64,000 nt of DNA from Planktothricoides raciborskii GIHE-MW2. GTDB lineage: Bacteria; Cyanobacteriota; Cyanobacteriia; Cyanobacteriales; Laspinemataceae. This document shows, in pieces, positions 26,022-47,267 of this stretch. The notes beneath the pieces are model-generated. The model was not told where the DNA came from, searched no databases, and was given only the letters and a program-made list of their open reading frames with translations. The translations under genes were made by a program, and so were the position numbers. Position 1 is the stretch's first letter. The number at the start of each line of letters is the position of its first letter. The stretch spans positions 291,801 to 355,800 of the forward strand of contig NZ_CP159837.1 in the NCBI RefSeq assembly GCF_040564635.1, given 5' to 3'.

Positions 26022-26023
26022 CC

Positions 26024-28672: not shown

Positions 28673-28695
28673 AAAAGTCCCAGAACATCACTAAC

Positions 28696-28730
28696 CCGGT
28701 TTCTTCAACAAGCCGGTTTTTTTGGCTGAC
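28696..28730 (+). terminator. hairpin aacccggtttcttcaacaagccggttttttt after the GT2 gene
   Basis: Stem aaccgg/ccggtt followed by a T-run. Confidence 0.4.
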
Positions 28731-30265: not shown

Positions 30266-30478
30266 TTAAGGTTAGTTATTTCACCAATAGCCAAGGGGCT
30301 CATCCCAGTATAATCGGGGCGAAGCATTGCGGCGATTAAGTGATCGTTAAGCATCTTAAATTCCGGAATGGTTTGCCCCAAAAAAACCGGGCTAATCGCC
30401 GATAGTTTTCAACAAATTAATCTCGATTAGCTATTAGCAACTCAGCATAAATTTTTAATAAAAAACAGGTTAATCATT

Positions 30479-31510: not shown

Positions 31511-31664
31511 TTTTCACCTGTTTATGGTGGGCTATGCCCACCAACATTCCCTAGGGGTAAATACCCACCATATCTGATGGATCAACCATCAATCCTAAAG
31601 CGTAATTATTGTTTGGATAAAAATCAGAAAAAAATTATCCTTGAGTAACCCATGAGGTTTTGAT

Positions 31665-32288
31665 ATGACGGTTAAAATTCATCCCACAGCCAACATTGAA
31701 TTAGGGGTGACAATTGGCGAAAAAACATCTATCTGGGACAATGTGCATATTCGTCACTCCACTCAAATTGGCGAAGAATGTATTATTGGGGAAAAAAGTT
31801 ATATTGCTTATGGGGTGACGATTGGCGATCGCGTGAAAATAAACGCTTTTGTCTATATTTGCACCGCTGTCACCATAGAAGATGGAGTGATGATTTCAGC
31901 CTCAACTACCTTTACTAATGACCGCTTTCCCAGAGCCACCACTTCAGATTTAAAACAGTTAAGAACCTCCGATCCCGATGACCATACTTTGCCAACTCTG
32001 GTCAAAGAAGGAGCAACCATTGGTGCCGGTTGTACCATTGGTAATAACCTGGAAATTGGTCGTTTTGCGATGATTGGCATGGGGTCTTTGGTGACTAAAT
32101 CAATCCCGGATTTTCATCTGGCAATTGGCCATCCAGCGAAGTCCATTGGTTGCGTGTGTCGCTGTGGAGAACCTTTGCTTCGTTTCACCCATGAAACAGA
32201 ACAATTTGACGAGGTTACTTGTTCTGTTTGCGGATTAAAATACTCTGTAAAACATCAAGTGGTGACAGAACTTACTCCTCCCGTTTGA
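31665..32288 (+). CDS. left-handed beta-helix (hexapeptide) sugar N-acyltransferase with C-terminal Cys4 ribbon
   Basis: Repeating [LIV]G hexads. The C-terminus has CVCRCG ... CSVCG. Confidence 0.8.
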   Translation: MTVKIHPTANIELGVTIGEKTSIWDNVHIRHSTQIGEECIIGEKSYIAYGVTIGDRVKINAFVYICTAVTIEDGVMISASTTFTNDRFPRATTSDLKQLRTSDPDDHTLPTLVKEGATIGAGCTIGNNLEIGRFAMIGMGSLVTKSIPDFHLAIGHPAKSIGCVCRCGEPLLRFTHETEQFDEVTCSVCGLKYSVKHQVVTELTPPV

Positions 32289-32324
32289 AATGATTACAAG
32301 ACCGGAAAAGTAGGAGCATAACCG

Positions 32325-33689
32325 ATGAGCGATCGCAATTTATCATCTACCATAAAAAATCCCCAGATAGAACATCCCAAAACAGAAAGTTGGGCAATTA
32401 TCGGTGGTGGGATGCTGGGCATGACTTTAGCCCATCGTCTGGTGCAACAAGGCAAAAATGTCACCTTATTTGAAAGTGCCAATTATTTAGGTGGATTGGC
32501 AAGTGCTTGGCAACTGGGTGATTTAGTTTGGGATCGCCATTATCATGTCACCTTGTTGTCAGATACTTATTTAAAAAATCTGTTAGATGAACTGGGTTTA
32601 GCCGCCGAAATGCAATGGGTGGAAACTCGCACCGGCTTATATACCAATGGCAAGTTATATTCGATTTCTAATAGTATCGAATTTCTTCGAGATTTTCCCC
32701 TAGGGTTACTCGGTAAAATCCGCTTTGCTTTAACCATTCTCTATGGGTCAAAAATTAAAAATTGGCAAAAACTAGAAAAAATATCTGTGAGTGATTGGCT
32801 AATCCGCTGGTCGGGCAAGTCGGTGTTTGAGAAAATTTGGTTGCCCCTACTGCGATCGAAGCTGGGAGAGAACTATAAAATCGCGTCTGCTTCCTTTATT
32901 TGGGCAATTATTGCCCGACTATATGCGGCCCGTCGTACCGGATTGAAAAAAGAAATGTTTGGCTATGTTCCCGGTGGATATGCCAAAATTATCGATCGCT
33001 TTGCCCAAGTTTTAGCGGCAGAAAATGTTAAGATAGAACTCGGTCATCGGGTGACAAGAATTGAGCGATTTAACCAAGGCATCAAGATTCAGTTTGACAA
33101 TGGGCATGAAGCAAGGTGCGATCGCGTAATTGTCACCTGCGCTGCCCCAATTGCCGCGCAAATTTGCCCGGACTTAACCGCTGATGAAATCAATCGACTC
33201 AAAGCCATTCAATATCAGGGAATTATTTGTGCTTCTCTGCTATTGAAGAAGCCTTTATCTGACTTCTATGTCACCAACATTACTGAGGACTGGGTTCCCT
33301 TTACCGGGGTAATTGAAATGTCCGCCTTAGTCGATCTCCAAAACTTCCACGGCAATGCTTTGGTTTACCTGCCGAAATATGTCACCCAAAACGACCCGGA
33401 TTTTGCTTTATCTGATTCAGAAATTAAAGCAAAATTCATTCAAGGTCTGCAAAGGATGTATCCGGAGTTTGACCCCAGGGACATCCTCTGTTTCCAAGTC
33501 TCGAAAGTCCGGTATGTCCTGGCAATTTCTACCCTAAATTACTCAGAAATGTTGCCGCAAATTAACACCTCTATCCCCGGATTACATATTATCAACACCG
33601 CGCATATTCTCAACGGCACATTGAATGTGAATGAAACCATTCAGCTTGCGGAAAAAGTAAGTCAACAGCTTTTTACTCTGCCTATTTAA
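32325..33689 (+). CDS. FAD/NAD(P)-binding amine-oxidase-fold oxidoreductase
   Basis: IIGGGMLGMTLAHRL ... ESANYLGGLA dinucleotide-binding start. Length 454 aa. Confidence 0.7.
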   Translation: MSDRNLSSTIKNPQIEHPKTESWAIIGGGMLGMTLAHRLVQQGKNVTLFESANYLGGLASAWQLGDLVWDRHYHVTLLSDTYLKNLLDELGLAAEMQWVETRTGLYTNGKLYSISNSIEFLRDFPLGLLGKIRFALTILYGSKIKNWQKLEKISVSDWLIRWSGKSVFEKIWLPLLRSKLGENYKIASASFIWAIIARLYAARRTGLKKEMFGYVPGGYAKIIDRFAQVLAAENVKIELGHRVTRIERFNQGIKIQFDNGHEARCDRVIVTCAAPIAAQICPDLTADEINRLKAIQYQGIICASLLLKKPLSDFYVTNITEDWVPFTGVIEMSALVDLQNFHGNALVYLPKYVTQNDPDFALSDSEIKAKFIQGLQRMYPEFDPRDILCFQVSKVRYVLAISTLNYSEMLPQINTSIPGLHIINTAHILNGTLNVNETIQLAEKVSQQLFTLPI

Positions 33690-33719: not shown

Positions 33720-34388
33720 ATGAACCAGCTATCTTCCATAAAACTTTTACCACCAGAGACCTTGTTAAAAACTGGTGCCGTCGATCATGCTGATTGGAAC
33801 TATCGACCTATTTTAGGCTGGATTCAACGTCAAAGATTTAATCTGATTATATCTTTGTTGGCCAAAGAAAGGGTCAATCGACTTTTAGAAGTCGGTTATG
33901 GCAGTGGTGTCTTTATGCCTGAATTAAGCGATCGCTGTCGGGAACTGTACGGAATTGATATTCACCAAAAACAAGCATCAGTGAATAAAGTTTTGGCCGA
34001 ATTTAATATTTCAGCAAAACTTTATTCGGGTAGTGCCACATTACTCCCATTTAAAAATAATTTTTTTGACTGTTTAGTGGCCGTTAGCAGTCTTGAATTT
34101 ATTGATAATTTAGATGCAGCTTCTCAGGAAATGCAGCGAGTTCTCAAGCCGGGAGGTTCTCTAGTTGTTGTGACTCCAGGTGCTTCAAAAATTGTGGATA
34201 TCGGATTAAAACTTCTTACGGGAAAAAGTGCGAAAAATGACTATGGCGATCGCCGTCAATCATTAATTCCTACTTTGCTGAAATATTTTACCATTCAACA
34301 AAAAACTACCGTACCTAGATTTGACAGTGGTCTGTTCTGTCTTTACACTGGCTTAAAACTTTGCCCTCGTCTTAAGAAGAAAATTTAA
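33720..34388 (+). CDS. class I SAM-dependent methyltransferase
   Basis: Motif I LEVGYGSGVF and a post-I acidic residue. Length 222 aa. Confidence 0.75.
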   Translation: MNQLSSIKLLPPETLLKTGAVDHADWNYRPILGWIQRQRFNLIISLLAKERVNRLLEVGYGSGVFMPELSDRCRELYGIDIHQKQASVNKVLAEFNISAKLYSGSATLLPFKNNFFDCLVAVSSLEFIDNLDAASQEMQRVLKPGGSLVVVTPGASKIVDIGLKLLTGKSAKNDYGDRRQSLIPTLLKYFTIQQKTTVPRFDSGLFCLYTGLKLCPRLKKKI

Positions 34389-34470
34389 CCGATCGCTCCC
34401 GACTAAGATCAATCACAATCCCTGAAAAATTAACAATTTTATCCTTAGCTAAAAAAATCGGTAGTTTTAT

Positions 34471-36141
34471 ATGAAAAACACGATAAAAATCAGATTAACG
34501 ACTAATGAAAATTGGCAATTTTTGCCTAATTCATTTAAGTTTTTATTAGTTGTAGTTTTAGCGATCGGCATTTTTTTTAGGTTTGCTAACCTGGAGCAAA
34601 AAATTTACTGGGGCGATGAAGCTTTTACTTCTCTGTGGATTTCTGGTCATACATCAACGGAGTTAATGGCCAGTCTTTTTACCGGGGAAATTATTCAAGT
34701 TGAAGACTTCCAAAAATATCAGGGTATTTTTCCGGGAAATAACGTCATTGATACCGTGAATGCTCTAGCAAAAGATACTCCTTTGATGCCACCACTGTAC
34801 TTTGCCCTGGTGCGCTGTTGGGTGGGAGTTTTTGGTGACTCGATCGCCGCTATAAGAGCGCTTTCTGCTGTGATTAGTTTATTCGTATTTCCAGCGATCT
34901 ATTGGCTATGTTGGGAATTGTTTAATTCATCATTAGTCGGATGGATTGTGATCGCCCTTACCGCTGTATGTCCTTATCAAGTTTTATACGCCCAAGAAGC
35001 GAGACCATATATCTTATGGGCAGTGACAATTTTACTTTCTAGTGCCTGTTTACTCCGAGCCATCAGGATTAATAAACCGCTCAATTGGGGCATATATGCG
35101 ATCGCTTTGACTGCCAGTCTATACACGCATCTATTTTCTGTATTTGTGGCCGTCGGGCAGGGAATTTATCTTCTCATAATTCACCGGTTTCGCTTGAATA
35201 AAATATCGATCAACTATTTGCTATCTTCTTTGGCAGCAGTCCTCTTATTTTTCCCTTGGTTTTTATGCATCATAAAATTTCAACAGTATTATCCAGATAG
35301 TTCTGGTGCTTCTATTTTTACTTTATCCAAGCGCTTAATCGGTTTGTTTACTCGATGCTTTATCGATTTCGGATCGGATTATTCAGACTCAGTTATAACA
35401 CTTATTATAATGACGATAATGAGCAGTATTATTATTATACTAATTGGTTATAGCTTTTGGTTTTTAATTTTTCATAATCCTGTGAAAATATGGGGTTTTG
35501 TGCTTCTGTCGAGTCTGCCAATCCTGCCTCTAGCCGTTTTGAGGGATTTAATCAAAGTATCTCAAGTGCTTCTAACCAGTCCAAGATATTTGTTTCCGGT
35601 TATTTTATATGTACAAATATCTGTGGCTTATTTGATATATATTTGGCTTCAAGGCAATCAAACAAATCATAAAAAATACCGAATTGTTTTCGTATCATTA
35701 ATTGCATCAGGTATATTATCTTCTGCCGTTAGCTTGCCAGCCGAAACTTGGTGGAATAAGCCAATCCCAATTCAATATCCTCGAATTGTCGAGAAGATAA
35801 ATCAATCTCAAAATGCCCTCATTATTAGTGATAGTTACTTATGGGCGATGTGGAATTTAATTTACTATCCTAACTTGGATACTTCAAATCTACAGTTTCA
35901 ATTGTTTACCCCCGAAACCCTAGAAATGTTTGACTTTGCTCAAAACATTAACATGAAATCAAGAGTTACTGGGAAGAATACAGCCAGGGACGATGAAAAT
36001 CAAAAAATATTTTTATTCTGGCCATCTAAGGAGTTGATTAATAAATTAAAAAATACTCATAATTGGGCTGTTGAATCTGTAAAAAATGTAAATTTTTTAT
36101 GGAATGTTACATCTCTAAGCCAGAAAAATAATATATCCTAA
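34471..36141 (+). CDS. GT-C fold (ArnT/PMT, GT39/83-like) polytopic membrane glycosyltransferase, paralog 1
   Basis: About 11 TM helices with a first-loop acidic motif (WGDEAF) typical of lipid-linked-donor GT-C enzymes. The 5' ~620 bp are near-identical to the next gene. Confidence 0.7.
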   Translation: MKNTIKIRLTTNENWQFLPNSFKFLLVVVLAIGIFFRFANLEQKIYWGDEAFTSLWISGHTSTELMASLFTGEIIQVEDFQKYQGIFPGNNVIDTVNALAKDTPLMPPLYFALVRCWVGVFGDSIAAIRALSAVISLFVFPAIYWLCWELFNSSLVGWIVIALTAVCPYQVLYAQEARPYILWAVTILLSSACLLRAIRINKPLNWGIYAIALTASLYTHLFSVFVAVGQGIYLLIIHRFRLNKISINYLLSSLAAVLLFFPWFLCIIKFQQYYPDSSGASIFTLSKRLIGLFTRCFIDFGSDYSDSVITLIIMTIMSSIIIILIGYSFWFLIFHNPVKIWGFVLLSSLPILPLAVLRDLIKVSQVLLTSPRYLFPVILYVQISVAYLIYIWLQGNQTNHKKYRIVFVSLIASGILSSAVSLPAETWWNKPIPIQYPRIVEKINQSQNALIISDSYLWAMWNLIYYPNLDTSNLQFQLFTPETLEMFDFAQNINMKSRVTGKNTARDDENQKIFLFWPSKELINKLKNTHNWAVESVKNVNFLWNVTSLSQKNNIS

Positions 36142-36325
36142 AGTGAATCAAAAATATTGTCTTACTTTACCCCTGTCTGAAGTATGGGTGAGATTTATAT
36201 CCTAATAAACGGATATATTTTCTAGATACATTCGTCATAAAAAATCAAGGCAATTTTCAACACAATAAACAAAAAATGCGATTTTTATAAATAAAATTTG
36301 GTCTGATTTTAGACCGAGGATAACT

Positions 36326-37945
36326 ATGAAAACAATGAATATTTTTTTAAATAATCATTGCCAAATTAACCCTAAATGGCTAAGATTTATCATTATCTCC
36401 GCTTTAGCAATCGGCATTTTTTTTAGATTTGCTAACCTGGAGCAAAAAATTTATTGGGGCGATGAAGCTTTTACTTCTCTGTGGATTTCTGGTCATACAT
36501 CAACGGAGTTAATGGCCAGTCTTTTTACCGGGGAAATTATTCAAGTTGAAGACTTCCAAAAATATCAGGGTATTTTTCCGGGAAATAACGTCATTGATAC
36601 CGTGAATGCTCTAGCAAAAGATACTCCTTTGATGCCACCACTGTACTTTGCCCTGGTGCGCTGTTGGGTGGGAGTTTTTGGTGACTCGATCGCCGCTATA
36701 AGAGCGCTTTCTGCTGTGATTAGTTTATTCGTATTTCCAGCGATCTATTGGCTATGTTGGGAATTGTTTAATTCATCATTAGTCGGATGGATTGCGATCG
36801 CCCTTACCGCTGTATGTCCTTATCAAGTTTTATACGCCCAAGAAGCGAGACCATATATCTTATGGGCAGTGACAATTTTACTTTCTAGTGCCTGTTTACT
36901 CCGAGCCATCAGGATTAATAAACCGCTCAATTGGGGCATATATGCGATCGCTTTGACTGCCAGTCTATACACACATCTATTTTCTGTATTTGTGGCCGTC
37001 GGGCATGGAATTTATCTTCTGATCTTAGAACGGTTTCGACTGAGTAAAATCTTGATGGCTTATTTGATAGCATCTGTTGGGGGGATGTTGGCGTTTTCTC
37101 CCTGGATTTTATTGATCCTAAAATTTCAAGAGTATTATCGAGAGCAACCCGGGGCTTCTATCTTTGTTATAGCCAAGCGCTTAATCGGGATTCTGCCTAG
37201 AATTATTATCGATTTCGGCTCTGGCTATTCAGACTCGGTTCTGAAAATTTCTGTGATGCTGATCTTAAATTCCCTCGTCTTGGCATTTATCTGCTATGCT
37301 TTTTGGGTGACTATTTGTAAAAATCCTCTAAAAATTTCCGCCTTTTTGGTAATTTTTACCTGGTTTATCTTACTGGTGACAGTGTTCAGAGATTTAAATT
37401 CAACTTCTGGAGTTCTACTAACCAACAAAAGATATTTGTTTCCGGTTGTTATGGGTATAGAAATATCCATAGCGGATTTTTTATCCTACCAACTAAGTCA
37501 GAAAAAAATCCCTCAAAGGCTCTGTCATATTATTTTATTAGGATTGATTTCATCAGGAATTTTATCTGGGGCGATTAGTCTGCCGTCAAAAACTTGGTGG
37601 AATAAGGAGGTTGGCAATGACTATACTGAAATTGTGGAGCAAATAAATCAATATCAAAATCCAGTTGTAATCAGCGACACGAAATTGTGGGTAATCTGGA
37701 ATTTAATTTACTATCATAAATTGGACAAATCAAAGTTAAAATTGCAGTTGTTTACTCCCAAAACTCTTCATATGTTTAACCCTGAAAAAACTGACGCAAA
37801 TATTTCTGATACCAGCACCGTAGACTATGGGAATAGCGATTTACTTTTATTTTATCCCTCTCCAGGATTAATTGCTAAATTTGAAGCCTCTAGTGATGGA
37901 AAATTGGCATCTGTAAATAAGTTAAGATTATGGTCACTTAAATAA
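36326..37945 (+). CDS. GT-C fold (ArnT/PMT-like) membrane glycosyltransferase, paralog 2
   Basis: Same architecture as paralog 1. The N-terminal ~205 aa are about 99% identical to paralog 1 and the C-terminal half has diverged. Confidence 0.7.
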   Translation: MKTMNIFLNNHCQINPKWLRFIIISALAIGIFFRFANLEQKIYWGDEAFTSLWISGHTSTELMASLFTGEIIQVEDFQKYQGIFPGNNVIDTVNALAKDTPLMPPLYFALVRCWVGVFGDSIAAIRALSAVISLFVFPAIYWLCWELFNSSLVGWIAIALTAVCPYQVLYAQEARPYILWAVTILLSSACLLRAIRINKPLNWGIYAIALTASLYTHLFSVFVAVGHGIYLLILERFRLSKILMAYLIASVGGMLAFSPWILLILKFQEYYREQPGASIFVIAKRLIGILPRIIIDFGSGYSDSVLKISVMLILNSLVLAFICYAFWVTICKNPLKISAFLVIFTWFILLVTVFRDLNSTSGVLLTNKRYLFPVVMGIEISIADFLSYQLSQKKIPQRLCHIILLGLISSGILSGAISLPSKTWWNKEVGNDYTEIVEQINQYQNPVVISDTKLWVIWNLIYYHKLDKSKLKLQLFTPKTLHMFNPEKTDANISDTSTVDYGNSDLLLFYPSPGLIAKFEASSDGKLASVNKLRLWSLK

Positions 37946-38186
37946 TTATTAGCTCAAAAATAATTAAAATTCAACCCAGCGACCTGCCTGGGCTATGGCA
38001 ATTGAAAAATCGCGATCGCTTGAGTCAGTCAAGTACCAAATTGCAAAAAAAGTAAATTTTTGTAACATAATGCCAAACTGGCAACACAGCTAGATGAATC
38101 GGGTTTTTCATAGGGATATAGAAATTTTCAGCGATTCGTCGGCAAGGCGATCGCAGTTCACCGACTCACCCGAAAAGGAGTAATCC

Positions 38187-38522
38187 ATGAGTAATCAACC
38201 CTTGACCACATTGGAGAAATCTACTATAACTTCGGAAATTGTCTCCCTAATTTTGGCCAATGTTCGGGACATTGCCGAGGAACAAGATATAGAAATTTCT
38301 GATAATTTAGACGAAAATACTCCGCTGTTTGGTAAGCACGGCTTATTTGATTCCTTGGGACTGGTCTCCCTGGTGGTCGCGGTGGAAGAAGCGATCGCCG
38401 ATAAATATGGAGTTACTGTGAGTCTCGCGGATGAAAAAGCCATGTCCCAAAAGCACAGCCCCTATCGTAATATCAGTTCTCTAGCTGAATATGCCAGTAG
38501 TTTAATTCCTACGGAAACGTAA
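38187..38522 (+). CDS. acyl carrier protein-like (phosphopantetheine attachment DSL motif)
   Basis: GLFDSLGLVSLVVAVEEA in an acidic 111-aa protein. Confidence 0.65.
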   Translation: MSNQPLTTLEKSTITSEIVSLILANVRDIAEEQDIEISDNLDENTPLFGKHGLFDSLGLVSLVVAVEEAIADKYGVTVSLADEKAMSQKHSPYRNISSLAEYASSLIPTET

Positions 38523-38527
38523 ATAAT

Positions 38528-39226
38528 ATGGATCATCCGATTACTTTGATTACCGGAACTCGCAAAGGAATTGGCAAATTTTTAGCCGAACACTATGTCG
38601 CCCAAGGACATCATGTCATTGGTTGCAGTCGCGGGGAAATCGATTGGAAATTAGACGGTTATATTCATTACGTCGCGGATGTTGCGGATGAAAAAGCGGT
38701 TCAGGCAATTTTTGCCGATTTACGCCAAACTTATGGTCGGCTAGATCATTTAATTAATAATGCGGGAATGGCTTCTATGAATCATTCTTTGCTCACTCCC
38801 GTTTCCACAGTTCACAAACTGTTAGATACGAATGTGGTCGGCACTTTTCTCTTTTGTCGAGAAGCGGCTAAATTAATGAAAAAAAATAAGTATGGTCGCA
38901 TCGTGAATTTCACCACGATCGCCGTACCCCTGAAATTAGCAGGAGAAGCAATTTATGTAGCATCAAAAGCAGCAGTGCTTTCTTTAACGGAAGTTTTAGC
39001 CAGAGAATTTGCGGAATTTGGCATTACGGTTAATTCCGTGGGTCCCGTACCCATTGAGACGGATTTAATTCGGGCTGTCCCGAAAGAAAAAATTGACCAG
39101 TTACTTGCCAAACAAGCGATTCACCGTTTGGGAACCTGTGAAGATGTGGCTAATGTGATTGACTTTTATCTCAAAAAAGAAAGTGGCTTAGTTACAGGTC
39201 AAAATCTGTTTTTAGGGGGCGTCTAA
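38528..39226 (+). CDS. SDR-family oxidoreductase (FabG-like ketoacyl reductase)
   Basis: TGTRKGIGK, NNAG and YVASKAAV (YxxxK). Confidence 0.85.
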   Translation: MDHPITLITGTRKGIGKFLAEHYVAQGHHVIGCSRGEIDWKLDGYIHYVADVADEKAVQAIFADLRQTYGRLDHLINNAGMASMNHSLLTPVSTVHKLLDTNVVGTFLFCREAAKLMKKNKYGRIVNFTTIAVPLKLAGEAIYVASKAAVLSLTEVLAREFAEFGITVNSVGPVPIETDLIRAVPKEKIDQLLAKQAIHRLGTCEDVANVIDFYLKKESGLVTGQNLFLGGV

Positions 39227-39288
39227 TTTTTGAGATAATCATTGATTATTTAACGGTTTCTCATTGTTAATTACTGGAGAAGCTGAAG

Positions 39289-39789
39289 ATGAGTAAAATC
39301 ATTTTTTCCTCGGTGCTGAATAGTGATTATTATGATGATTTAGAAAAGCTGATGTTTTTCAACCCCCAACAAGAAAAAGTCAGAAATGAGGTAATTTCAG
39401 CGGTAGAACGCTATGGTCAACCGAAAATTTACCGGGATGGCGATCGCCTGAGAATTGGGGTGGGTTCTTTCTCAATGGTGCAAGCATTATTTGCCCTGAA
39501 TGGTCAAAAAGCCGATCGGCAATTGCTGGGGATGATTGCTTATATGCGCGAAAATCCTGACAATATGGCGATTTTGCATATCGTGGTGCGAGAAGACTAT
39601 TCTGCGGTGGGAATTCATGGTAATGAAATGTTACTAATGCACTTAATCGATCGCGTCAGGGAAATTGCCGCTAAAATTAAAGGCATAAGTTGCGTAACCC
39701 TTGCCTATAAATCAGAAAAAATTACCAAAATTCCGGTCAAACACCGAATGGCTGAATCAGGAATTACGCATGAGGTCGGTAGGGTGTGA
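39289..39789 (+). CDS. hypothetical protein (possible acyl-CoA N-acyltransferase-like fold)
   Basis: 166-aa ORF in operon context. I recognise no strong motif. Confidence 0.45.
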   Translation: MSKIIFSSVLNSDYYDDLEKLMFFNPQQEKVRNEVISAVERYGQPKIYRDGDRLRIGVGSFSMVQALFALNGQKADRQLLGMIAYMRENPDNMAILHIVVREDYSAVGIHGNEMLLMHLIDRVREIAAKIKGISCVTLAYKSEKITKIPVKHRMAESGITHEVGRV

Positions 39790-39874
39790 AAGCGCAAAGC
39801 GTAACGTACCAATATCCCATATAAGTAGACGGGCAGAAATAACCACAGACCCAATGAGAAAAAAACTGTCATTC

Positions 39875-39900
39875 CCGCGAAGGCGGGAATCCACAGCCTA
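39875..39900. repeat. second copy of the gtcattcccgcgaaggcgggaat hairpin core
   Basis: Matches the core at 24037-24062. Confidence 0.5.
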
Positions 39901-40015
39901 TCGGCGGGGAAAGAAAAGTGAAATTAATTATGTTCACCTACTTATAGAGTCGTTGCGTAAGTCATAAGGATGTTTGAAATAAATTAATTTAACCAAAAAT
40001 TATGGAGGTTTTTAA

Positions 40016-41362
40016 GTGTATATTGACTTTTTACTTGACATATTTAATCGCCACCGAGAACAAGAGGCAATCGTCTGGCGAAACCAGCTATTTTCCTACG
40101 ATTGGCTATTAAATGCGATCGCCGATTGGCGCGAAAAACTTAGGGGAATTGAAGGGTTAGTGGTCAGCTTGGAAGCAGATTTTTCGCCCAACGCGATCGC
40201 CTTGTTGTTAGTTTTAATCGAACAGAACTGCATCATTGTTCCCCTGAGTAGTTCTGTAGACATGAAAAAAGCGGAATTTCGGGAAATTGCTGAGGTAGAA
40301 ACAATCATTAAAGTCAGTGATTTAGAAGCAGTGGAAATTGAGGAAACGCCCATCACTGCCACTCACGAACTTTTGCTAAAACTGAAACAGCAAAGCAGAC
40401 CGGGACTGATTCTCTTTTCCTCCGGTTCTACGGGAAAAAGTAAAGCGACCGTCCATGATTTTGTGCCGCTGTTAGAAAAATTTAAAGAACCACGCCAATT
40501 TTTACGCACCCTGACTTTTTTACTCTTCGATCATATCGGCGGAATTAATACCTTATTTTATAGTTTAGCCAATGGGGGATTAGTGGTTAGTATTGAAGAT
40601 AGGTCGCCGGATGTAGTTTGCCAAGCCATTGAAAAATACAAGCTGGAATTATTACCTACTTCACCCACTTTTATCAATTTAATCTTGTTGAGTGAAGCCT
40701 ACAAACGCTATGATATTTCTAGTCTTAAGCTGGTGACTTATGGCACGGAAGTCATGGCAGAAACCACCTTAAAACGATTTAACCAACTATTTCCCAATGT
40801 TAGATTATTACAAACCTATGGATTATCAGAAATTGGCATTATGCGATCAAAGTCAAAATCTTCTGATTCTTTGTGGGTAAAAGTTGGGGGCGAAGGATTT
40901 GAAACTCGCATCGTGGATGGTCAGCTAGAAATTAAAGCAAAATCCGCCATGTTGGGCTACATGAATGCACCGAGTCCTTTTACGGAAGATGGCTGGTTAA
41001 AAACTGGTGATGCGGTAGAAGTTGACGGAGAATATATTAGATTTTTAGGCCGAAAATCAGAAATGATTAATGTGGGTGGGGAAAAAGTTTACCCCGCAGA
41101 AGTCGAAAGTGTTCTTCAGTTAATGGACGGAGTGGACGATGTGGCCGTTTGCGCGGAAAAAAACCCAATTACCGGGCAAATTGTTAAGGCCAAAGTTAAA
41201 CTAAGTACCAATGAAAGCCTCCCAGAATTTAGAAAACGAATGTGGAGTTTTTGTCAAAAAACAATGCCTAAATTTAAAATTCCCCAAAAAGTCGTTTTGG
41301 CAAATGATTGGATGCATAGCGAACGGTTTAAGAAAATGAGGAGGGACATTGAAACTGGTTGA
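40016..41362 (+). CDS. AMP-dependent synthetase/ligase (short acyl-ACP/CoA synthetase-like adenylating enzyme)
   Basis: AMP-binding P-loop LFSSGSTGKSKAT, plus YGLSE and GWLKTGD motifs. Length 448 aa. Confidence 0.85.
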   Translation: MYIDFLLDIFNRHREQEAIVWRNQLFSYDWLLNAIADWREKLRGIEGLVVSLEADFSPNAIALLLVLIEQNCIIVPLSSSVDMKKAEFREIAEVETIIKVSDLEAVEIEETPITATHELLLKLKQQSRPGLILFSSGSTGKSKATVHDFVPLLEKFKEPRQFLRTLTFLLFDHIGGINTLFYSLANGGLVVSIEDRSPDVVCQAIEKYKLELLPTSPTFINLILLSEAYKRYDISSLKLVTYGTEVMAETTLKRFNQLFPNVRLLQTYGLSEIGIMRSKSKSSDSLWVKVGGEGFETRIVDGQLEIKAKSAMLGYMNAPSPFTEDGWLKTGDAVEVDGEYIRFLGRKSEMINVGGEKVYPAEVESVLQLMDGVDDVAVCAEKNPITGQIVKAKVKLSTNESLPEFRKRMWSFCQKTMPKFKIPQKVVLANDWMHSERFKKMRRDIETG

Positions 41363-41984
41363 ACCAATTGTCAGCGATCGCTATACCCCAGTGGAATATC
41401 ACCAGTTTTCCCAGCCCAAAAATCTCCGTATAGCGATGAAAATTGCCGGGATACTTTCTTGGCCATTAGTATTACCTTTAGCCTGGTTATCTCGAAAATC
41501 GGATTTTATCTTTCGCACGGTTTCTGAATTATTAGCAATTGTCCCTTATTTATTCGGGGTAATTATCCGATATGAGTTCTACCGCTGGACTTTAACCTGG
41601 TGTGGGAAAAATGTGGCGATCGGCTTTGGCACAATATTGACTTATCGCAATATTAAAATCGGCAGCAATGTCAATATTGGCAACCATATTACGATTCATT
41701 ATTGCGATATTGGGTCTTATGTTTTGATTGCCGACGGTTGCCAACTTTTGAGTGGTTCCCGCTATCACAATTTCGATCGCACCGACATTCCCATCGCCTT
41801 ACAAGGTGGCCAACTACGGCGAATTCAAATTGGCGATGACTGCTGGATCGGGGCCAATGCAGTGGTGATGAACGATATCGGTCAAGGGAGTGTGGTTGGG
41901 GCGGGGGCGGTTGTCACCAAGGCCGTAGAACCTTATACCGTTGTAGCGGGAAATCCGGCAAAACCAATCAGGAGTCGTTTATGA
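41349..41984 (+). CDS. membrane-anchored hexapeptide-repeat acyltransferase (WcaF-like)
   Basis: N-terminal TM segments followed by left-handed-helix hexads (IGSNVNIGNHITI ... IGANAVVM ... VVGAGAVV). Confidence 0.75.
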   Translation: MKLVEPIVSDRYTPVEYHQFSQPKNLRIAMKIAGILSWPLVLPLAWLSRKSDFIFRTVSELLAIVPYLFGVIIRYEFYRWTLTWCGKNVAIGFGTILTYRNIKIGSNVNIGNHITIHYCDIGSYVLIADGCQLLSGSRYHNFDRTDIPIALQGGQLRRIQIGDDCWIGANAVVMNDIGQGSVVGAGAVVTKAVEPYTVVAGNPAKPIRSRL

Positions 41985-42994
41985 ATCCCATGAATCAAAT
42001 CCAAGCCTCAACCGAGGGTAGGGTGGGCAAAATTTTGCCCACCCTACGGATAGCGATCGCCTGTATTCTCAGCACGATCCTCGGCTGTGCTTCCAAAGCC
42101 AACATTTCCCCTCCCTTTGAAGCGGGGGCAAAGGGGTATTCCCCAACCCCGAAATCGACTAACGACTTTCCTGACTATTCTCGTACCCCGGTGCTATTTG
42201 TCCACGGTTCCGGCTTAAGTTCAAGCACATGGCAGCCCATGATCAAACATCTGCAAGAAATTGGTTATCCATCGGCATATCTTTACGCCGTGGAGATCCA
42301 GCCCAATGATGGGGCAAACGATCGCGCCGCCGAAACCTTCATTGCCCCTGCGGTGGAGTCGATGTTGGCCAAAGCCCAGGCAGCCGCCAGAGATGCCGCC
42401 AAACAAAAATCTAACGTCCCAAAAAATATCGAACCGATACCCGTGAAGGTGGATATCGTAGCGCACAGTATGGGGGCGGTAAGCAGTCGCTGGTACATCG
42501 CCAAACTGCATCCAGAACGGGTACGCACTTGGATTTCCCTTGCCGGGGCTAATCATGGCACCAATGCCCTCTGCGGTTATTCCGGAGCAGGGAATCAACA
42601 AATGTGTCCAGCCTTTGCCACTTCTGCGGAGGACAGTCCCTTGCAGGTGGCACTCAATGGCACCCCCAGCGCCCCGATTGATGAAACTCCCTTCGGACTG
42701 GGAGTTGATTCCCCAGAAGTCAAAACCATTCCCCCAGACACAGACCGAGAGATTTTATATCTCTCCGTGCGAATTGAACCCGATGGTTGGATTAAACCAG
42801 AAAATAGTGCCGTAATTGATGGGGCTGGAGGACTGCCCATCCCCATCCCTGCGGGAGTCCCGGTGCAAGAAACCAGTCCCGGCAACTACTTATTTCAAGG
42901 TCGCGTCGGCCACGATCCCCTGCCCCAAGACCCGGATCTAATTCGTCTGGTAGCCAGTATGCTTAGTGTCCGCGACGGACAGGAGAGGCGTTAA
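41981..42994 (+). CDS. lipoprotein lipase/esterase (alpha/beta hydrolase, Lipase_2-like)
   Basis: Lipobox ILGCAS, nucleophile elbow AHSMGA, and PVLFVHGSG. A 30-bp perfect palindrome lies in the signal-peptide coding region. Confidence 0.7.
   Translation: MNPMNQIQASTEGRVGKILPTLRIAIACILSTILGCASKANISPPFEAGAKGYSPTPKSTNDFPDYSRTPVLFVHGSGLSSSTWQPMIKHLQEIGYPSAYLYAVEIQPNDGANDRAAETFIAPAVESMLAKAQAAARDAAKQKSNVPKNIEPIPVKVDIVAHSMGAVSSRWYIAKLHPERVRTWISLAGANHGTNALCGYSGAGNQQMCPAFATSAEDSPLQVALNGTPSAPIDETPFGLGVDSPEVKTIPPDTDREILYLSVRIEPDGWIKPENSAVIDGAGGLPIPIPAGVPVQETSPGNYLFQGRVGHDPLPQDPDLIRLVASMLSVRDGQERR
42018..42047. repeat. 30-bp perfect palindrome gtagggtgggcaaaattttgcccaccctac, in frame within a CDS (identical copy at 47762-47791)
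   Basis: Exact self-complementarity, and exact identity to the intergenic copy at 47762-47791. Confidence 0.9.
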
Positions 42995-43713
42995 TGAGTA
43001 TCTCTTACCAACTTGTTCCCTTTGATCGAAACACCCCTGCACCCGTGCAAGTTCTCGCTCGACTGCATCAAGAGCTAATCCCCAGTAGCCCAATTGTCTT
43101 ATTGGGTAAGGGATTTATGGAGCAATTTTACTATCATATATTGCCCCGCGAGGGTTTAATTTGTGGTGCCGTGGCCTATATCGACGGTCAACCCGCCGGA
43201 TTTATCGTCGCCACACCAGACTCAGCCCGGTTTATGAGAATTGGCCTCCGACGCCATTGGTGGCGATTAATCTGGATCATTGGCACTTCGGTGCTGCGGG
43301 AACCTAAGCGACTGGCGGCGATTTGGGAAGCATGGCAAATTATGAGGAGTAGGGGTCAATGGCCATTGACCCCTACTGGTGAAGCAGAAGCACTGGAGGG
43401 AGAACTGCTTTCTTTTGGGGTACTGCCTGCTTACCGAAATCCAAAATTTATTAGACAATCTGGTTTACAAATTTCCCAGGATCTTTTCAACCGGGCTGTA
43501 AGCCAGATTCAAGAGGCAGGAATTTGCCAAATTCGAGCGATCGTTGACGCGGACAATACTCCCGCCAAACTGTTTTATCACGGATTGGGATGGCATCTCG
43601 ATCGCACCCAAGTCCCTGGTTGGCGACTTCCCAGTGTGGATTTTGTCTGGCGAAACACGGCAAAAGCAGATCCGGCGCAACCAAGCTTTCAAGCTTTAAA
43701 CAAGGGGAACTGA
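42994..43713 (+). CDS. GNAT-like acyltransferase-fold protein (carries an in-frame palindromic insertion)
   Basis: FGVLPAYRNPKF ... AIVDADNTPAKLFYHGLGW resembles the GNAT core. The palindrome at 43349-43376 is translated as RGQWPLTP. Confidence 0.5.
   Translation: MSISYQLVPFDRNTPAPVQVLARLHQELIPSSPIVLLGKGFMEQFYYHILPREGLICGAVAYIDGQPAGFIVATPDSARFMRIGLRRHWWRLIWIIGTSVLREPKRLAAIWEAWQIMRSRGQWPLTPTGEAEALEGELLSFGVLPAYRNPKFIRQSGLQISQDLFNRAVSQIQEAGICQIRAIVDADNTPAKLFYHGLGWHLDRTQVPGWRLPSVDFVWRNTAKADPAQPSFQALNKGN
43349..43376. repeat. 28-bp perfect palindrome gtaggggtcaatggccattgacccctac, in frame within a CDS (near-identical copy at 48743-48770)
   Basis: Exact self-complementarity. The copy in the intergenic region at 48.7 kb is preceded by a heptamer array. 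Confidence 0.9.
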
Positions 43714-43714
43714 T

Positions 43715-44809
43715 ATGAAAGAAAAACAAGATTCCCTGAAAAAAAGAGAGACTTCCGTTCGTCGCTGGCTATACGGACTATTGGGTCTAATCATCACCAT
43801 TGTCTTTTTAGTCTGGGCATTACGGGGTGTATCCCCAGGGGTGGTATGGCAAGCGGTGCAACAATCCCAAGGAGAATGGGTGCTGCTGGGGTTAATCACC
43901 TTTATCAGTTCCTTTTCCATTCGGGCAAGACGTTGGGGCACCTTGCTGGGGGCACACCACGACCCAGGGTCCTTTAAAATCCGTCAATCTGCGGTGTTCA
44001 TTGGCTTTGCCGGTAATGCTATTCTCCCAGCCCATGCGGGAGAGGTGATTCGTTCTTTAATTCTGCACCGATTTGGCGGCGTTCCTTTGGGGGCAGCCCT
44101 GGGAAGCATCTTCGCCGAACGGTTGCTGGATGCGGTGGTCGCCTTTCTCTTATTATTAATTGCCCTGTTGTCCGTGACCCAAGCTAGTCACCTTGGGGCC
44201 GTACAACCGGGAAATTTCTCCTCTTTGCCCGTTGGCTGGATCGCGCTGGTGTTAGCGATCGCCTGTGTAATGTTCTTATCCGCCGCTAGATGGCCTTTGG
44301 CGATCGCGGAATTCGTTGGCAAAGTTAGCCGAGTCTTCGGTCTGGGTCGCCATGCCCCCCGAATTGAGGCGATCGTCCGCAGTCTACTCAGTGGACTCGA
44401 AGCCCTCCGCTATCCTCAACGGGGCATTATGGCGGTGATGGAGAGTTTCTGTATTTGGGGCATGACCGGCATGACCTACTGGTTCCTGATGTTGGCCTTT
44501 GGCATTAATACCCCCGGCCCAATGGGGGCTTTGTTCGTCCAAGGGGTTGTGGCATTAGCGATCGCCATTCCCTCGTCCCCCGGTTACTTAGGCCCATTTG
44601 AAGCCGCCATCAGATTCGGACTGGGACTCTACGCCATTCCCCCAGATGCGATCGTGGCTTTTGCCATCACCCTGAGAATTCTCATGTTCTTCAGTCTCAC
44701 CGCGATCGGATTTTTCCTCGCCACCCGGTTGGGTCTATCTTGGCATGACTTCATCCAAAGCAAAAACGACCAAAAAGCGGGTGTTTTCACCAAATCTGGA
44801 TCTGGGTGA
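43715..44809 (+). CDS. polytopic membrane protein of the lysylphosphatidylglycerol-synthase-TM / flippase-like (UPF0104) family
   Basis: Eight hydrophobic segments and an N-terminal KKRETSVRRWLYGLLGLIITIVFLVWALRGV typical of this family. Confidence 0.65.
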   Translation: MKEKQDSLKKRETSVRRWLYGLLGLIITIVFLVWALRGVSPGVVWQAVQQSQGEWVLLGLITFISSFSIRARRWGTLLGAHHDPGSFKIRQSAVFIGFAGNAILPAHAGEVIRSLILHRFGGVPLGAALGSIFAERLLDAVVAFLLLLIALLSVTQASHLGAVQPGNFSSLPVGWIALVLAIACVMFLSAARWPLAIAEFVGKVSRVFGLGRHAPRIEAIVRSLLSGLEALRYPQRGIMAVMESFCIWGMTGMTYWFLMLAFGINTPGPMGALFVQGVVALAIAIPSSPGYLGPFEAAIRFGLGLYAIPPDAIVAFAITLRILMFFSLTAIGFFLATRLGLSWHDFIQSKNDQKAGVFTKSGSG

Positions 44810-44855
44810 GGAGGCAAAAATTACGAAGAGAAACCCCATTCCTGAGATTAAAACC

Positions 44856-45857
44856 ATGAACAAAAATAAAAATAAGCAACAAAATAACAAACCCTACGCC
44901 AGCTTATCCCTAGACCTGGATAACAAATGGTCATATATGAAAACTCACGGCGATCGCGGTTGGGAAACTTTCCCCTCCTACTTGGATATTGTTGTGCCTC
45001 GGTTCCTGGAATTTCTCAAAGCCAGAAATCAGACCATTACTGTCTTTATTGTCGGTCAAGATGCGGCATTAGAAAAAAACCACCAAGCCCTAAAAGCGAT
45101 CGCCGATGCAGGCCATGAAATTGGCAATCATTCCTTTAATCACGAACCGTGGTTACATCTTTATTCCGAGGCAGAAATTGAACAAGAAATTGTCATAGCC
45201 CAACAGCAGATTAAGCAAGTCACGGGCAAACGTCCCATTGGATTTCGCGGCCCTGGTTTCAGTATTTCCCAAAACACTTTACAGGTTTTGAAAAGACAAG
45301 GCTATGAATATGATGCCTCAACTTTCCCCACTTTTCTCGGCCCGCTTGCCCGGGCTTATTATTTCCTCACCACCAAATTAGACCCGGAAGAACAACGCAA
45401 ACGCAAAGCATTATTTGGCAGTCTCGCCGAAGGATTTCGACCCTTAAAACCCTATCATTGGCATCTGGATGCCGGGGAAATTGTGGAAATTCCTGTAACT
45501 ACCATGCCCATTTTTAAAGTGCCGATTCATGTCAGCTATATTCTCTATCTCAGTCAATTTTCAACGGGGTTAGCCTTACTTTATTTTCGGATAGCCATGT
45601 TGTTATGCCGCTTAACCGGAGTGCAACCGTCTTTATTGCTTCATCCTTTGGATTTTCTTGGTTATGATGATGCCCCAGAGTTGGCATTTTTCCCGGCGAT
45701 GAAACTGCCCTCGGCAAAGAAAATAGAAATCCTCAGTCAAGTGCTTAATTTAATGTCCGATCGCTTCACAATTGTGACGATGCAGCAGTATGCTCGCGAA
45801 GTATCGCAAAAAGCGAATCTGCCCCTGGTGCAGCCAAATTTTCAACATAATTGTTGA
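44856..45857 (+). CDS. polysaccharide deacetylase (NodB homology domain)
   Basis: LSLDLD (TFDD-like motif) and GNHSFNHEPW (HSxxH). The start is chosen at MNKNK; an in-frame extension to 44745 would overlap the upstream gene by 65 bp. Confidence 0.8.
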   Translation: MNKNKNKQQNNKPYASLSLDLDNKWSYMKTHGDRGWETFPSYLDIVVPRFLEFLKARNQTITVFIVGQDAALEKNHQALKAIADAGHEIGNHSFNHEPWLHLYSEAEIEQEIVIAQQQIKQVTGKRPIGFRGPGFSISQNTLQVLKRQGYEYDASTFPTFLGPLARAYYFLTTKLDPEEQRKRKALFGSLAEGFRPLKPYHWHLDAGEIVEIPVTTMPIFKVPIHVSYILYLSQFSTGLALLYFRIAMLLCRLTGVQPSLLLHPLDFLGYDDAPELAFFPAMKLPSAKKIEILSQVLNLMSDRFTIVTMQQYAREVSQKANLPLVQPNFQHNC

Positions 45858-45951
45858 TTGTTGATTGTTGATTGTTGATTGTTGATTGTTGTTTGTTGTT
45901 TGTTGTTTGTTCAGCAACCACCAACCACCAAGCACCAACCACCAACCACCA
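45851..45951. repeat. STRR-like heptamer array (ttgttga)n that switches to an (accaacc)n array
   Basis: Direct read. The TGA stop of the deacetylase is part of the first repeat. Confidence 0.85.
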
Positions 45952-46029
45952 AAAAAATAATCAGCGGATGTCCCCCTATTTTCAATTACCAAGGGATATC
46001 CGCTGTAAAAAGATTCTCGGAAAGCTAGA

Positions 46030-46329
46030 TCAACTGCTACCAGTAAATTGAAGTTCTGGAAATTTACCTTGAGCAGAGGATAAAGGAAGCCGTCTGCCTT
46101 CTTCTTGCCAATAGTTAATTACTTCTGTAGCTTTATTGAGTAACTCGACGCGATCGACTTCGGCGATCCAGTGCTTGCCTTCGAGTTCATTCTTCAGTTC
46201 TTCCCAGGCATCATTGCGAGGCCAAAAGAAGTAACGAGTTAATGGACTGGTGCCTTGACCAACAACTTGATCTACCGCAAGGGCTACGTTGTCCTCTAGC
46301 CAGAGAACCTTTAGAATGAATTTTGACAA
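46030..46329 (-). CDS. ycf65: ribosomal protein PSRP-3 / Ycf65 homolog
   Basis: [21 protein letters not shown]...[23 protein letters not shown]...VINYWQEEG matches the conserved Ycf65 sequence. Confidence 0.8.
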
Positions 46330-46442
46330 TCAAACCTCCCGGACAATGCGGTGACTATTTTACAAATGTACAATTCTCTATTGTACAACAATTTTTGTCA
46401 ATAGCGCAGTTATACAGCAATTATTTTTTTGGGAGGAAATCA

Positions 46443-47267
46443 GTGAGCGGGGAATCAACTAGAGGCGACCGGGCAATCGCGATCGCGGTTTTTGATATCG
46501 ATGGGGTGGTCAGGGACGTGAGTGGGTCATACCGACGGGCGATCGCGGATACCGTGGAACACTTCACCGCCGCCAAATACCGCCCGACATACCGCCCCAC
46601 CCCTGGGGATATCGACCAACTCAAATCAGAAGGCATCTGGAATAATGACTGGGAAGCTTCCCAAGAATTAATCTATCGCTATTTTGAACGGCAAGGTCAA
46701 AGCCGTGGGGAAATAAATCTTGACTTTGAAACCTTAGTGGCATTTTTTCAATCCCGGTATCGCGGCACCGACCCGGTGAACATGAATGGCTACATCACCC
46801 AAGAACCTTTACTATTACAACCCAGTTACTTAGCCAGTCTCACAAATGCGGGAATTCCTTGGGGATTTTTTAGTGGGGCAATGCGGGCAGAAGTTGCTTA
46901 TGTGCTAGAAGGGGCGTTAGGGCTGGAAAATCCCGTGGTTGTAGCGATGGAAGATGCCCCCGGAAAGCCCGACCCCACCGGACTTTTTGCCGTTTTAGCC
47001 CAACTGCAACAACAGTATCCCATCTCAAAAACGACTCCAACGATCTATGTCGGCGATACGGTGGCGGATATGTGGACGGTGCAGAAAGCTAAGGAACAAC
47101 AAGGCGATCGCTTTTGGGTCGGGGTGGGAGTCTTGCCCCCTCATGTCACGAGCGATCGCCGGGAAGCCTATATTCAAAACCTAGAAAAAGCGGGCGCCGC
47201 TGTGGTCCTGAGCAACGTCCAAGAATTAACCCCAGAATTAATTCAAAAATTAGTTATTGGTTGTTAG
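46443..47267 (+). CDS. HAD-superfamily hydrolase
   Basis: Motif I FDIDGVV, later GDTVADM, and a GGAGG RBS 8 nt upstream of a GTG start. The 3' end is built from heptamer repeats. Confidence 0.7.
   Translation: MSGESTRGDRAIAIAVFDIDGVVRDVSGSYRRAIADTVEHFTAAKYRPTYRPTPGDIDQLKSEGIWNNDWEASQELIYRYFERQGQSRGEINLDFETLVAFFQSRYRGTDPVNMNGYITQEPLLLQPSYLASLTNAGIPWGFFSGAMRAEVAYVLEGALGLENPVVVAMEDAPGKPDPTGLFAVLAQLQQQYPISKTTPTIYVGDTVADMWTVQKAKEQQGDRFWVGVGVLPPHVTSDRREAYIQNLEKAGAAVVLSNVQELTPELIQKLVIGC

Follow-up and report, generated by a model that had tools for sequence, protein, structure and literature searches.

A divergent carrier protein, ketoreductase and ligase trio in a glycan cluster of Planktothricoides raciborskii, and its predicted part in sugar acylation

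Described carrier-based acylation systems and the Planktothricoides locus

Carrier-based acylation of O-antigen sugars was known before, as proposals only, and the general idea will be unsurprising to a specialist. Here, we investigated a module of this kind in 64,000 nucleotides of the cyanobacterium Planktothricoides raciborskii GIHE-MW2 (NCBI RefSeq assembly GCF_040564635.1, contig NZ_CP159837.1, positions 291,801 to 355,800 of the forward strand), a stretch referred to below as the window. Five co-directional open reading frames (ORFs) on the plus strand, delimited earlier by a sequence-only reading, are all present. They encode an acyl carrier protein (ACP)-like protein that we call the carrier (111 aa, 38187–38522), a FabG-like ketoreductase of the short-chain dehydrogenase/reductase (SDR) type (232 aa, 38528–39226), a 166-aa protein with a GNAT fold (GNAT166, 39289–39789), an ANL ligase (448 aa, GTG start, 40016–41362), and a 211-aa hexapeptide protein (TTG start, 41349–41984) that we call TM-LbH, for its putative transmembrane (TM) segment and left-handed beta-helix (LbH). 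On balance, we favor the interpretation that these five genes, with at least the next four, are an arm dedicated to acylation within a pathway that modifies a glycan or glycolipid. It is well supported that this arm prepares a hydroxyacyl group, probably a short one, on the carrier for an amino sugar.

In Vibrio cholerae O1, the ACP RfbK and the AMP-forming ligase RfbL have been proposed to act in the build-up of a 2,4-dihydroxybutanoyl group and the N-acylation of perosamine (PMC12208996). By gene content, rfbK-rfbO (wbeK-O) is like the window in that a dedicated ACP, a ligase, reductases, and a hexapeptide acyltransferase sit within an O-antigen cluster. The reductases differ, as V. cholerae has an iron-type alcohol dehydrogenase and a LuxC/LuxE-like reductase where the window has a single FabG-like SDR. 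The settings differ as well: the V. cholerae system is built on a GDP-sugar and an ABC-transporter O-antigen, whereas the window has an Arn-like set with a family 2 glycosyltransferase (GT2), a deacetylase, a flippase-like protein, and GT-C glycosyltransferases. Roles for RfbM, RfbN, and RfbO in V. cholerae were reportedly described by Morona et al. in 1995.

Flavobacterium psychrophilum offers a second comparison, in which the ACP WfpD, the 3-ketoacyl-ACP reductase WfpF, and the PglD homologue WfpG are predicted to place a dihydroxyhexanoyl group on UDP-Qui2NAc4N (PMC6519341). The wfpC-wfpG genes resemble the window in having an O-polysaccharide-specific ACP, a ketoreductase, and an LbH acyltransferase, again as judged by gene content. 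However, wfp has two ketosynthases, no adenylating ligase, and a soluble PglD-type transferase. The window cluster has no ketosynthase gene; its ligase would load a ready-made acid, and TM-LbH is MAT/WcaF-like and predicted to be membrane associated.

A third comparison is with two published gene lists. The group II flagellin-glycosylation islands of Aeromonas contain an ACP (orf1), a 3-oxoacyl-ACP reductase (orf2), and an AMP-synthetase (orf3) (PMC7874193), and the serotype O1-specific genes of Yersinia ruckeri include an ACP/reductase/synthetase trio together with a polysaccharide deacetylase (PMC5552943). When these descriptions are compared with the window, both trios match it in content, and that of Aeromonas matches in order too. 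Unlike the window trio, they adjoin pseudaminic-acid or O-antigen genes and LuxE/LuxC. They probably belong to the same trio family that we found in at least 506 species.

The wider surroundings recall a different set of pathways. The Arn, Lgm, and Flm systems (ArnB, ArnC, ArnD, and ArnT; LgmA-C; FlmF2, NaxD, and FlmK) combine an aminotransferase, a polyprenyl-phosphate GT2, a deacylase, a flippase, and a GT-C enzyme, and the window follows the same logic by encoding a DegT protein, a GT2, a Polysacc_deac_1 protein, a flippase-like protein, and two PMT_2 proteins together. The flippase is ArnE/F in Arn and of the LPG_synthase_TM type in the window. To our knowledge, none of these pathways re-acylates the sugar from a carrier protein. 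Scores against the Arn models were low (ArnC 56 bits against a cut-off of 529, ArnB 188.8 against 631, ArnD 23.7 against 382); as all matches to models of characterized pathways fall below their cut-offs, we speak of Arn resemblance and not of membership.

We found no biochemically characterized version of the trio in the literature, which holds proposals and gene lists only, and a review of Escherichia coli O-antigens assigns no gene to their 3-hydroxybutanoyl groups. What is new here is the divergent carrier subfamily, the putatively membrane-docked MAT/WcaF-like LbH protein, the additional GNATs, and the Arn-like cassette that recurs across phyla.

Conservation and protein features of the carrier-SDR-ligase trio

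We scanned one genome per species and identified at least 506 loci with a relative of the ligase. Details were taken from the best 80, including 37 well-flanked loci with at least 4 kb on both sides. The 80 ligases show 54–97% identity and come from Cyanobacteria, Proteobacteria, Bacillota, Chloroflexota, Gemmatimonadota, Acidobacteriota, Actinomycetota, Planctomycetota, and other groups. The carrier accompanies the ligase in 74–75 of the 80 loci and the SDR does so in 74; among the well-flanked loci the counts are 37/37 and 34/37, respectively. Wherever the SDR was found, it lies between the carrier and the ligase. Such an arrangement is far beyond chance.

The order carrier-SDR-ligase is seen in polysaccharide loci of Bacillus, Flavobacterium, Pseudobdellovibrionaceae, Spirulina, and one metagenome contig, and the trio often adjoins a DegT aminotransferase, a polysaccharide deacetylase, and an acyltransferase. 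Its neighbors are Wza/Wzz/Wzx in Flavobacterium, Bac_transf, FabH, and a PglD-like transferase in Bacillus, and, in Pseudobdellovibrionaceae, an ABC exporter together with DegT and PglD-like genes. The setting is that of a polysaccharide or glycoconjugate in all of the related loci examined, more than 90 in number. The sequence-only reading had seen in these genes a kit for loading an acyl group onto a carrier and passing it to a glycan, and a conserved trio that is always found in glycan loci bears this out.

What follows the ligase varies by lineage. In the lineage of the window type, TM-LbH comes next, then an alpha/beta hydrolase and a GNAT protein of ~220–240 aa (GNAT239). Bacillaceae have a second ACP and a PglD-like LbH protein at this place, with FabH upstream, and Roseiflexus has a different hexapeptide protein near the ligase. 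A supposed MBOAT/DltD-like partner in Chloroflexota was rejected, as the pair after the ligase consists of a protein with no Pfam match and another hexapeptide protein.

We also seeded the search in reverse, from TM-LbH, and recovered orthologues of at least 56% identity at seven independent loci. The carrier, SDR, and ligase adjoin TM-LbH in all seven (7/7). A metagenome scan from TM-LbH gave 10 loci, most of them short, of which only L091 and L092 could be used. L101, a metagenome locus of unclassified origin, has the trio near a Wzm/Wzt exporter: an FkbH-like protein and a second PP-binding ACP follow TM-LbH (8736–10925), and then come Wzm and Wzt, the latter with a Wzt_C domain (15424–16672). 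We read the first pair as a glyceryl-ACP-type loader and the exporter as an O-antigen-type ABC system.

The carrier belongs to a family of at least 156 proteins, and none of the 120 homologues listed has a precomputed Pfam domain. Its sole NCBIfam matches are weak ones to DltC (19.4 bits, cut-off 68), a name that some homologues also bear in their annotation. The motif GLFDSLG contains Asp55-Ser56, which is invariant in 23 diverse homologues, with DS(L/M/I) as the family form. In the AlphaFold2 model (pLDDT 79), three long helices are predicted, helix II begins exactly at Ser56, and the region of helix III is an unstructured loop. A Foldseek search of the model against the PDB returned ACPs for all of its best eight matches, with weak statistics (E 0.4–1.5; TM-score 0.42–0.62) that we attribute to the small size of the protein. 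Thus, the earlier description of an ACP-like protein with a DSL site holds, given the invariant serine, its place at the start of helix II, and the ACPs among the structural matches, weak as these are. As judged from sequence and model, the carrier represents a real, divergent ACP subfamily with Ser56 as the predicted phosphopantetheine site. Residues 80–92 form a loop that ordinary ACPs do not have, LADEKAMSQxxSP(F/Y), specific to the family and unchanged from phylum to phylum. Model confidence is lowest here, and the loop may be a docking element.

The SDR gene begins 5 nt after the carrier gene, and not 4 bp as given earlier. Its product matches Pfam adh_short_C2 (1e-45) and has the motifs TGTRKGIG at 9, NNAG at 77, and YVASK at 143; it does not reach the cut-off of the FabG equivalog TIGR01830 (150.8 bits against 297.75). 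By these features it is a classical SDR of the FabG-like class and not FabG itself. Lys13 and Arg35 presumably indicate the use of NADP(H).

The ligase has a two-domain architecture, with Pfam AMP-binding (2e-25) and AMP-binding_C (2e-8) both above their thresholds. All of the ANL core motifs are present: A3 SSGSTGKSK, A5 YGLSE, A7 TGD, A8 GRKSEMIN, and A10 KKMRR. The length of 448 aa had been given correctly, while the description of the ligase as short had not, as 447–455 aa is normal for the family. The nearest solved relatives in the PDB are DhbE (the top match), FadD13, 4-chlorobenzoate ligase, and MenE, all at ~70–76 bits. All 98 NCBIfam matches are below their cut-offs (best 133.8 bits against 476), which places the ligase, as far as sequence models tell, outside the characterized ANL subfamilies (FadD, MenE, DltA, acetoacetyl-CoA synthetase, and others). 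In an alignment with FadD13, the invariant FDHIGG overlies the A4 motif and the residue after the conserved His is Ile174. We take this position, in Stachelhaus/DhbE numbering, to be an Asp in amino-acid-activating enzymes. The suggestion that the ligase be profiled for substrate specificity could thus be followed in part: an alpha-amino acid is excluded, while the PDB and NCBIfam neighbors do not discriminate further among acids. The ligases of this cyanobacterium, Povalibacter, Bacillus, and Pseudobdellovibrionaceae (a Bdellovibrio relative) are 60–75% identical, and such high identity across phyla argues for a single common substrate. We predict an acid:carrier-protein ligase. The database name is "long-chain fatty acid--CoA ligase," and we judge names of this kind to be generic.

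Proposed chemistry, candidate transferases, and alternatives

We propose that a phosphopantetheinyl transferase encoded elsewhere would convert Ser56 of the carrier to the holo form. The ligase would then adenylate one specific small carboxylic acid, the same in all lineages, and thioesterify it to the carrier; this loading step is suggested by the synteny, the intact motifs, and the very high conservation across phyla. The SDR may reduce the carrier-bound acyl chain at a keto group, or interconvert the hydroxy and keto forms, to give a hydroxyacyl-S-carrier. As most loci have no ketosynthase, the acyl chain is probably short, such as 3-hydroxybutanoyl derived from acetoacetate. Finally, a membrane-associated acyltransferase, either TM-LbH or GNAT239, would move the acyl group to an amine or hydroxyl of an amino sugar.

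TM-LbH (Hexapep, 1e-10) is translationally coupled to the ligase, with a 14-nt overlap between the ligase stop and the TM-LbH start. The sequence-only reading had likened it to the LpxA/LpxD acyltransferases. The two LpxA models, with cut-offs of 226 and 231, give it 29.6 and 29.3 bits, and the 25 best of its 45 listed NCBIfam matches do not include LpxD. The best of those are instead WcaF, WbbJ, NeuD, Vat, and CatB, all in keeping with a MAT/GAT/WcaF-like family, with scores below the model cut-offs (WcaF subfamily 61.5 bits against 192; WbbJ 58 against 243). The best PDB matches are likewise the galactoside/maltose O-acetyltransferases and Vat/CatB (E 1e-11). We therefore reject LpxA/LpxD as the family and keep them as a working analogy, in the sense that a carrier would hand a hydroxyacyl group to an amino sugar. 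TM-LbH has in common with LpxA and LpxD the left-handed beta-helix fold and this idea of transfer from an ACP; unlike them, it aligns with the MAT/GAT/Vat/CatB/WcaF branch and has an additional conserved hydrophobic module at the N-terminus.

The claim that TM-LbH is anchored in the membrane receives moderate support: there are two hydrophobic stretches (residues ~26–48 and 53–75), and only the second passes the Kyte-Doolittle threshold of 1.6. The 106 members of the family are 59–99% identical over their full length, and residues 26–78 are conserved to nearly the same degree as the beta-helix (0.73 against 0.77). Tyr139-His140 is invariant and lies in a loop; by comparison with LacA, His140 is presumably catalytic. 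From these features, TM-LbH appears to be a membrane-associated left-handed beta-helix acyltransferase and a candidate for unloading the carrier. The use of an acyl-carrier as donor is suggested by one line of evidence, the genomic linkage to the carrier and ligase.

Two GNAT proteins are also of interest. GNAT239 (42994–43713, plus strand) is a GNAT acyltransferase by family and profile evidence, as 10 of 13 family members match Acetyltransf_1 and all PDB profile matches are GNATs. It is found in 25 of the 80 ligase loci and is the commonest transferase-type neighbor of the ligase. TM-LbH is therefore not settled as the unloader of the carrier, and GNAT239 is equally plausible as the user of the acyl-carrier. 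GNAT166, formerly listed as a protein of unknown nature, can now be given a GNAT fold; it still matches no described family, with no Pfam match and only a 20-bit NCBIfam match to RimI. It lies inside the module in cyanobacterial loci and in L101, and elsewhere it adjoins FabH-like, deacetylase, and DegT genes. An exhaustive profile search yielded 656 representatives, and we discarded the idea that GNAT166 is restricted to cyanobacteria. We consider it an accessory member of the module from an undescribed family.

Several observations weigh against a dedicated acylation arm. The carrier reaches 17.5 bits on Pfam PP-binding (PF00550), for which the gathering threshold is 20.8. It is conceivable that the SDR works on the sugar and not on a tethered acyl group. 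The closest characterized relatives of TM-LbH use acetyl-CoA and not acyl-ACP, a GNAT239-like gene lies directly 3' of the ligase in place of the LbH gene in ~10 loci, and we recognized no transferase from our own reference set in 18 of the 37 well-flanked ligase loci. A 226-nt gap (39790–40015) parts the first three genes of the module from the ligase. Promoter and terminator scans gave counts at the level of shuffled sequence (42 versus 43.5 and 30 versus 22.8 ± 4.6, respectively) and are uninformative, so the operon limits are drawn from co-orientation and stop/start overlaps. All of the sugar-pathway assignments score below the NCBIfam equivalog cut-offs. While gene content, motifs, folds, synteny, and co-occurrence are matters of observation, we infer every chemical step, the acid, the choice between N- and O-acylation, and the lipid-linked acceptor.

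Among the alternatives, the one to which we give the most weight, while still considering it rather unlikely, keeps the trio as proposed and makes TM-LbH an ordinary acetyl-CoA-dependent O-acetyltransferase of the WcaF/MAT kind, so that GNAT239, or GNAT166 in cyanobacteria, would unload the carrier. The family placement of TM-LbH is what one would expect if so. However, its gene overlaps the ligase stop, all seven of the seeded orthologues adjoin the trio, and a PglD-type LbH protein occupies the same position after the ligase in other lineages; the conservation across its family (59–99%) also suggests a specialized partner and not a generic acetyltransferase. Less probable again is a lipid anchor, where the ligase would be a long-chain acyl-ACP synthetase and the product a lipo-amino-sugar or glycolipid that undergoes periplasmic deacylation in a lipid A- or GPI-like remodelling. 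The name of the ligase and the presence of FadD13 among its best PDB matches fit this idea, as do the membrane-associated N-terminus of TM-LbH, the co-conserved hydrolase with its matches to Lipase_2, palmitoyl thioesterase, and PGAP1, and the speculation of the Aeromonas authors about a "liposugar" (PMC7874193). Yet the database names of the ligase are unspecific and none of its NCBIfam scores comes near a cut-off, an obligatory ketoreductase has no obvious role on a ready-made fatty acid, and the trio also occurs alongside PglD-like N-acyltransferases at classical O-antigen and capsule loci, where the known chemistry is that of short N-acyl groups.

The DltC matches and annotations of the carrier raise the question of a Dlt-like aminoacylation, in which an amino acid would pass from a DltC-like carrier to a glycan. 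In the window this could even be a beta-amino acid, as a KamA-type aminomutase and a Ddl-like ligase are encoded upstream (24864–27016). We hold this to be quite improbable: the ligase aligns with acyl- and aryl-CoA ligases and has Ile174 and not Asp in A4, neither an MBOAT protein (DltB) nor DltD was found in the cluster, the SDR would have no role, and the aminomutase pair is missing from the Spirulina locus. The least credible of all is a fragment of secondary metabolism (a siderophore, nonribosomal peptide synthetase, or polyketide synthase) inside a glycan cluster. An ACP, an adenylating enzyme, and a ketoreductase are also parts of the loading modules of such systems, and the top PDB match of the ligase is DhbE. 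Against this, we found no condensation, ketosynthase, or thioesterase domains in the window cluster, and the glycan context of all of the more than 90 related loci means that synteny effectively refutes it. The sequence-only reading had itself named a siderophore or polyketide origin as the outcome that would overturn it, and no sampled context resembles such a cluster.

The surrounding cassette and its significance

The coupled block extends past the five genes of the earlier interval, to at least 44809, since the junctions from the ligase to the flippase-like gene are -14, -4, -1, and +1 nt (stop/start spacing) and the last three of these lie 3' of TM-LbH. The next gene encodes an alpha/beta hydrolase (41981–42994, plus strand; Lipase_2, Palm_thioest, PGAP1), whose start overlaps the TM-LbH stop and which is co-conserved in L004, L006-L008, and L101. 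It has a weak match to PhaZ7, its hydrophobic N-terminal segment includes a lipobox-like ILGC motif, and its nucleophile elbow reads AHSMG. It is probably an exported lipoprotein of the LipA/PhaZ7/PPT1 type. Following the GNAT239 gene, the flippase-like membrane protein (43715–44809, plus strand; LPG_synthase_TM/TIGR00374) has at least five TM segments and clear matches (Pfam 9e-41; NCBIfam 91.8 bits against 43.2), and it is kept in the cassette. The polysaccharide deacetylase (44745–45857, plus strand; Polysacc_deac_1, 2e-22) is of the NodB/ArnD superfamily, and its true start probably lies 3' of the listed ATG. In L006-L008, L010, L092, and L101, the carrier gene directly follows the deacetylase gene; the enzyme is predicted to free an amine for re-acylation.

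Upstream of the module lie the amino-sugar genes that had been noted before; they are confirmed as such and resemble a WbpB/E/D diamino-sugar set. All of the following are on the plus strand. A GT2 with two C-terminal TM segments (27509–28672) has its best matches among the polyprenyl-phosphate glycosyltransferases PgfS, ArnC, PpgS, and AglJ. Sequence matches identify a DegT aminotransferase (29033–30265), a GFO oxidoreductase resembling UDP-GlcNAc 3-dehydrogenase (30479–31510), a 207-aa LbH N-acetyltransferase of the NeuD/WbpD/PglB/VioB type (31665–32288), and a methyltransferase (33720–34388). Between the last two is a FAD amine-oxidase-like protein (PRK07233, 32325–33689), which matches NF005560, named "hypothetical protein," and is co-conserved with the cassette in other phyla. 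Two tandem GT-C paralogues (PMT_2, ArnT-like; 34471–36141 and 36326–37945) with 11–12 TM segments each are identical at 348 of 535 positions and have no NCBIfam match; related loci have one copy. The genes at 27509–33689 are syntenic in Spirulina (L004) and co-conserved in L006-L008, and the set of ~15 genes as a whole recurs in the window, Spirulina, Povalibacter, and several metagenome contigs. The cassettes outside of cyanobacteria also have a UDP-GlcNAc 2-epimerase and an NAD-dependent epimerase. Only three proteins of the cluster pass NCBIfam cut-offs, namely the NF005560 FAD protein, the TIGR00374 flippase-like protein, and a HAD hydrolase (TIGR01548), and the NCBI entries of strain GIHE-MW2, which the module proteins match exactly, give them generic names only.

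Some further features of the region were recorded. The HAD hydrolase (208 bits against 140), a possible member of the cluster, is encoded at 46323–47267 on the plus strand, 465 nt 3' of the deacetylase gene, and is also present in a close relative (L009). Directly upstream of the GT2, the gene for the KamA-type 2,3-aminomutase (AblA-like, 460 bits against 525) overlaps that for the Ddl-like ATP-grasp ligase (24864–27016, plus strand). The syntenic locus of Spirulina (L004) lacks this pair, which may here contribute a beta-amino acid to the product of the cluster or be unrelated to it. An ORF of 167 aa at 26992–27495 (plus strand) has no homologues and is oddly rich in W, R, and C, and we rejected it as probably spurious. 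The 226 nt between GNAT166 and the ligase contain a 20-nt GC-rich palindrome, ATTCCCGCGAAGGCGGGAAT, at 39871–39890; this spacer measures 205 nt in L001 but just 16 nt in Spirulina, and the palindrome is thus not a conserved element. An Rfam scan found no RNA family at its gathering score anywhere in the window. The GC content shifts within the co-directional cluster (34000–46000), from 0.36–0.37 in the GT-C genes to ~0.41 from the carrier to the ligase and 0.52 at 42–44 kb, where the hydrolase, GNAT239, and flippase-like genes are located. These shifts hint at a mosaic origin. Three large adjacent ORFs are found on the minus strand (48836–50383, 50632–52359, and 52372–53940), and the first two have no Pfam match.

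The cassette lends itself to a more complete proposal. The upstream WbpB/WbpE/WbpD-like enzymes would make a UDP-2,3-diamino-type sugar, which the ArnC-like GT2 probably places on polyprenyl phosphate. The deacetylase of the cluster would de-N-acetylate the sugar, and the special acyl group would replace the acetyl. The LPG_synthase_TM-like protein may then flip the product for the GT-C enzymes to transfer to a periplasmic acceptor, and the exported hydrolase with the AHSMG elbow would act last, after that transfer. Taken as a whole, this would be an undescribed and widespread pathway in which a polyprenyl-phosphate diamino sugar is de-N-acetylated and re-acylated from the carrier at the cytoplasmic face, flipped, transferred by GT-C enzymes, and remodelled by a hydrolase, with a new carrier subfamily that the LADEKAMSQ loop sets apart and a new membrane-docked LbH family whose donor is acyl-carrier and not acyl-CoA. 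We put it forward as a tentative conjecture, one that we think is less apt to be right than wrong in its entirety. Such an envelope pathway would join the lipid-carrier chemistry of the Arn type to acylation and deacylation steps like those of lipid A or GPI.

The presence of the trio in at least 506 species-level genomes from more than 10 phyla, with an unusually conserved ligase (54–75% identity), makes it well worth experimental study. Knowing which acid is attached would explain how a class of non-acetyl N- and O-acyl decorations reaches bacterial surface glycans, and such decorations shape serotype, phage receptors, and immune recognition. For this cyanobacterium and many environmental bacteria, the conserved Arn-like cassette of ~15 genes is a starting point for a new envelope modification.

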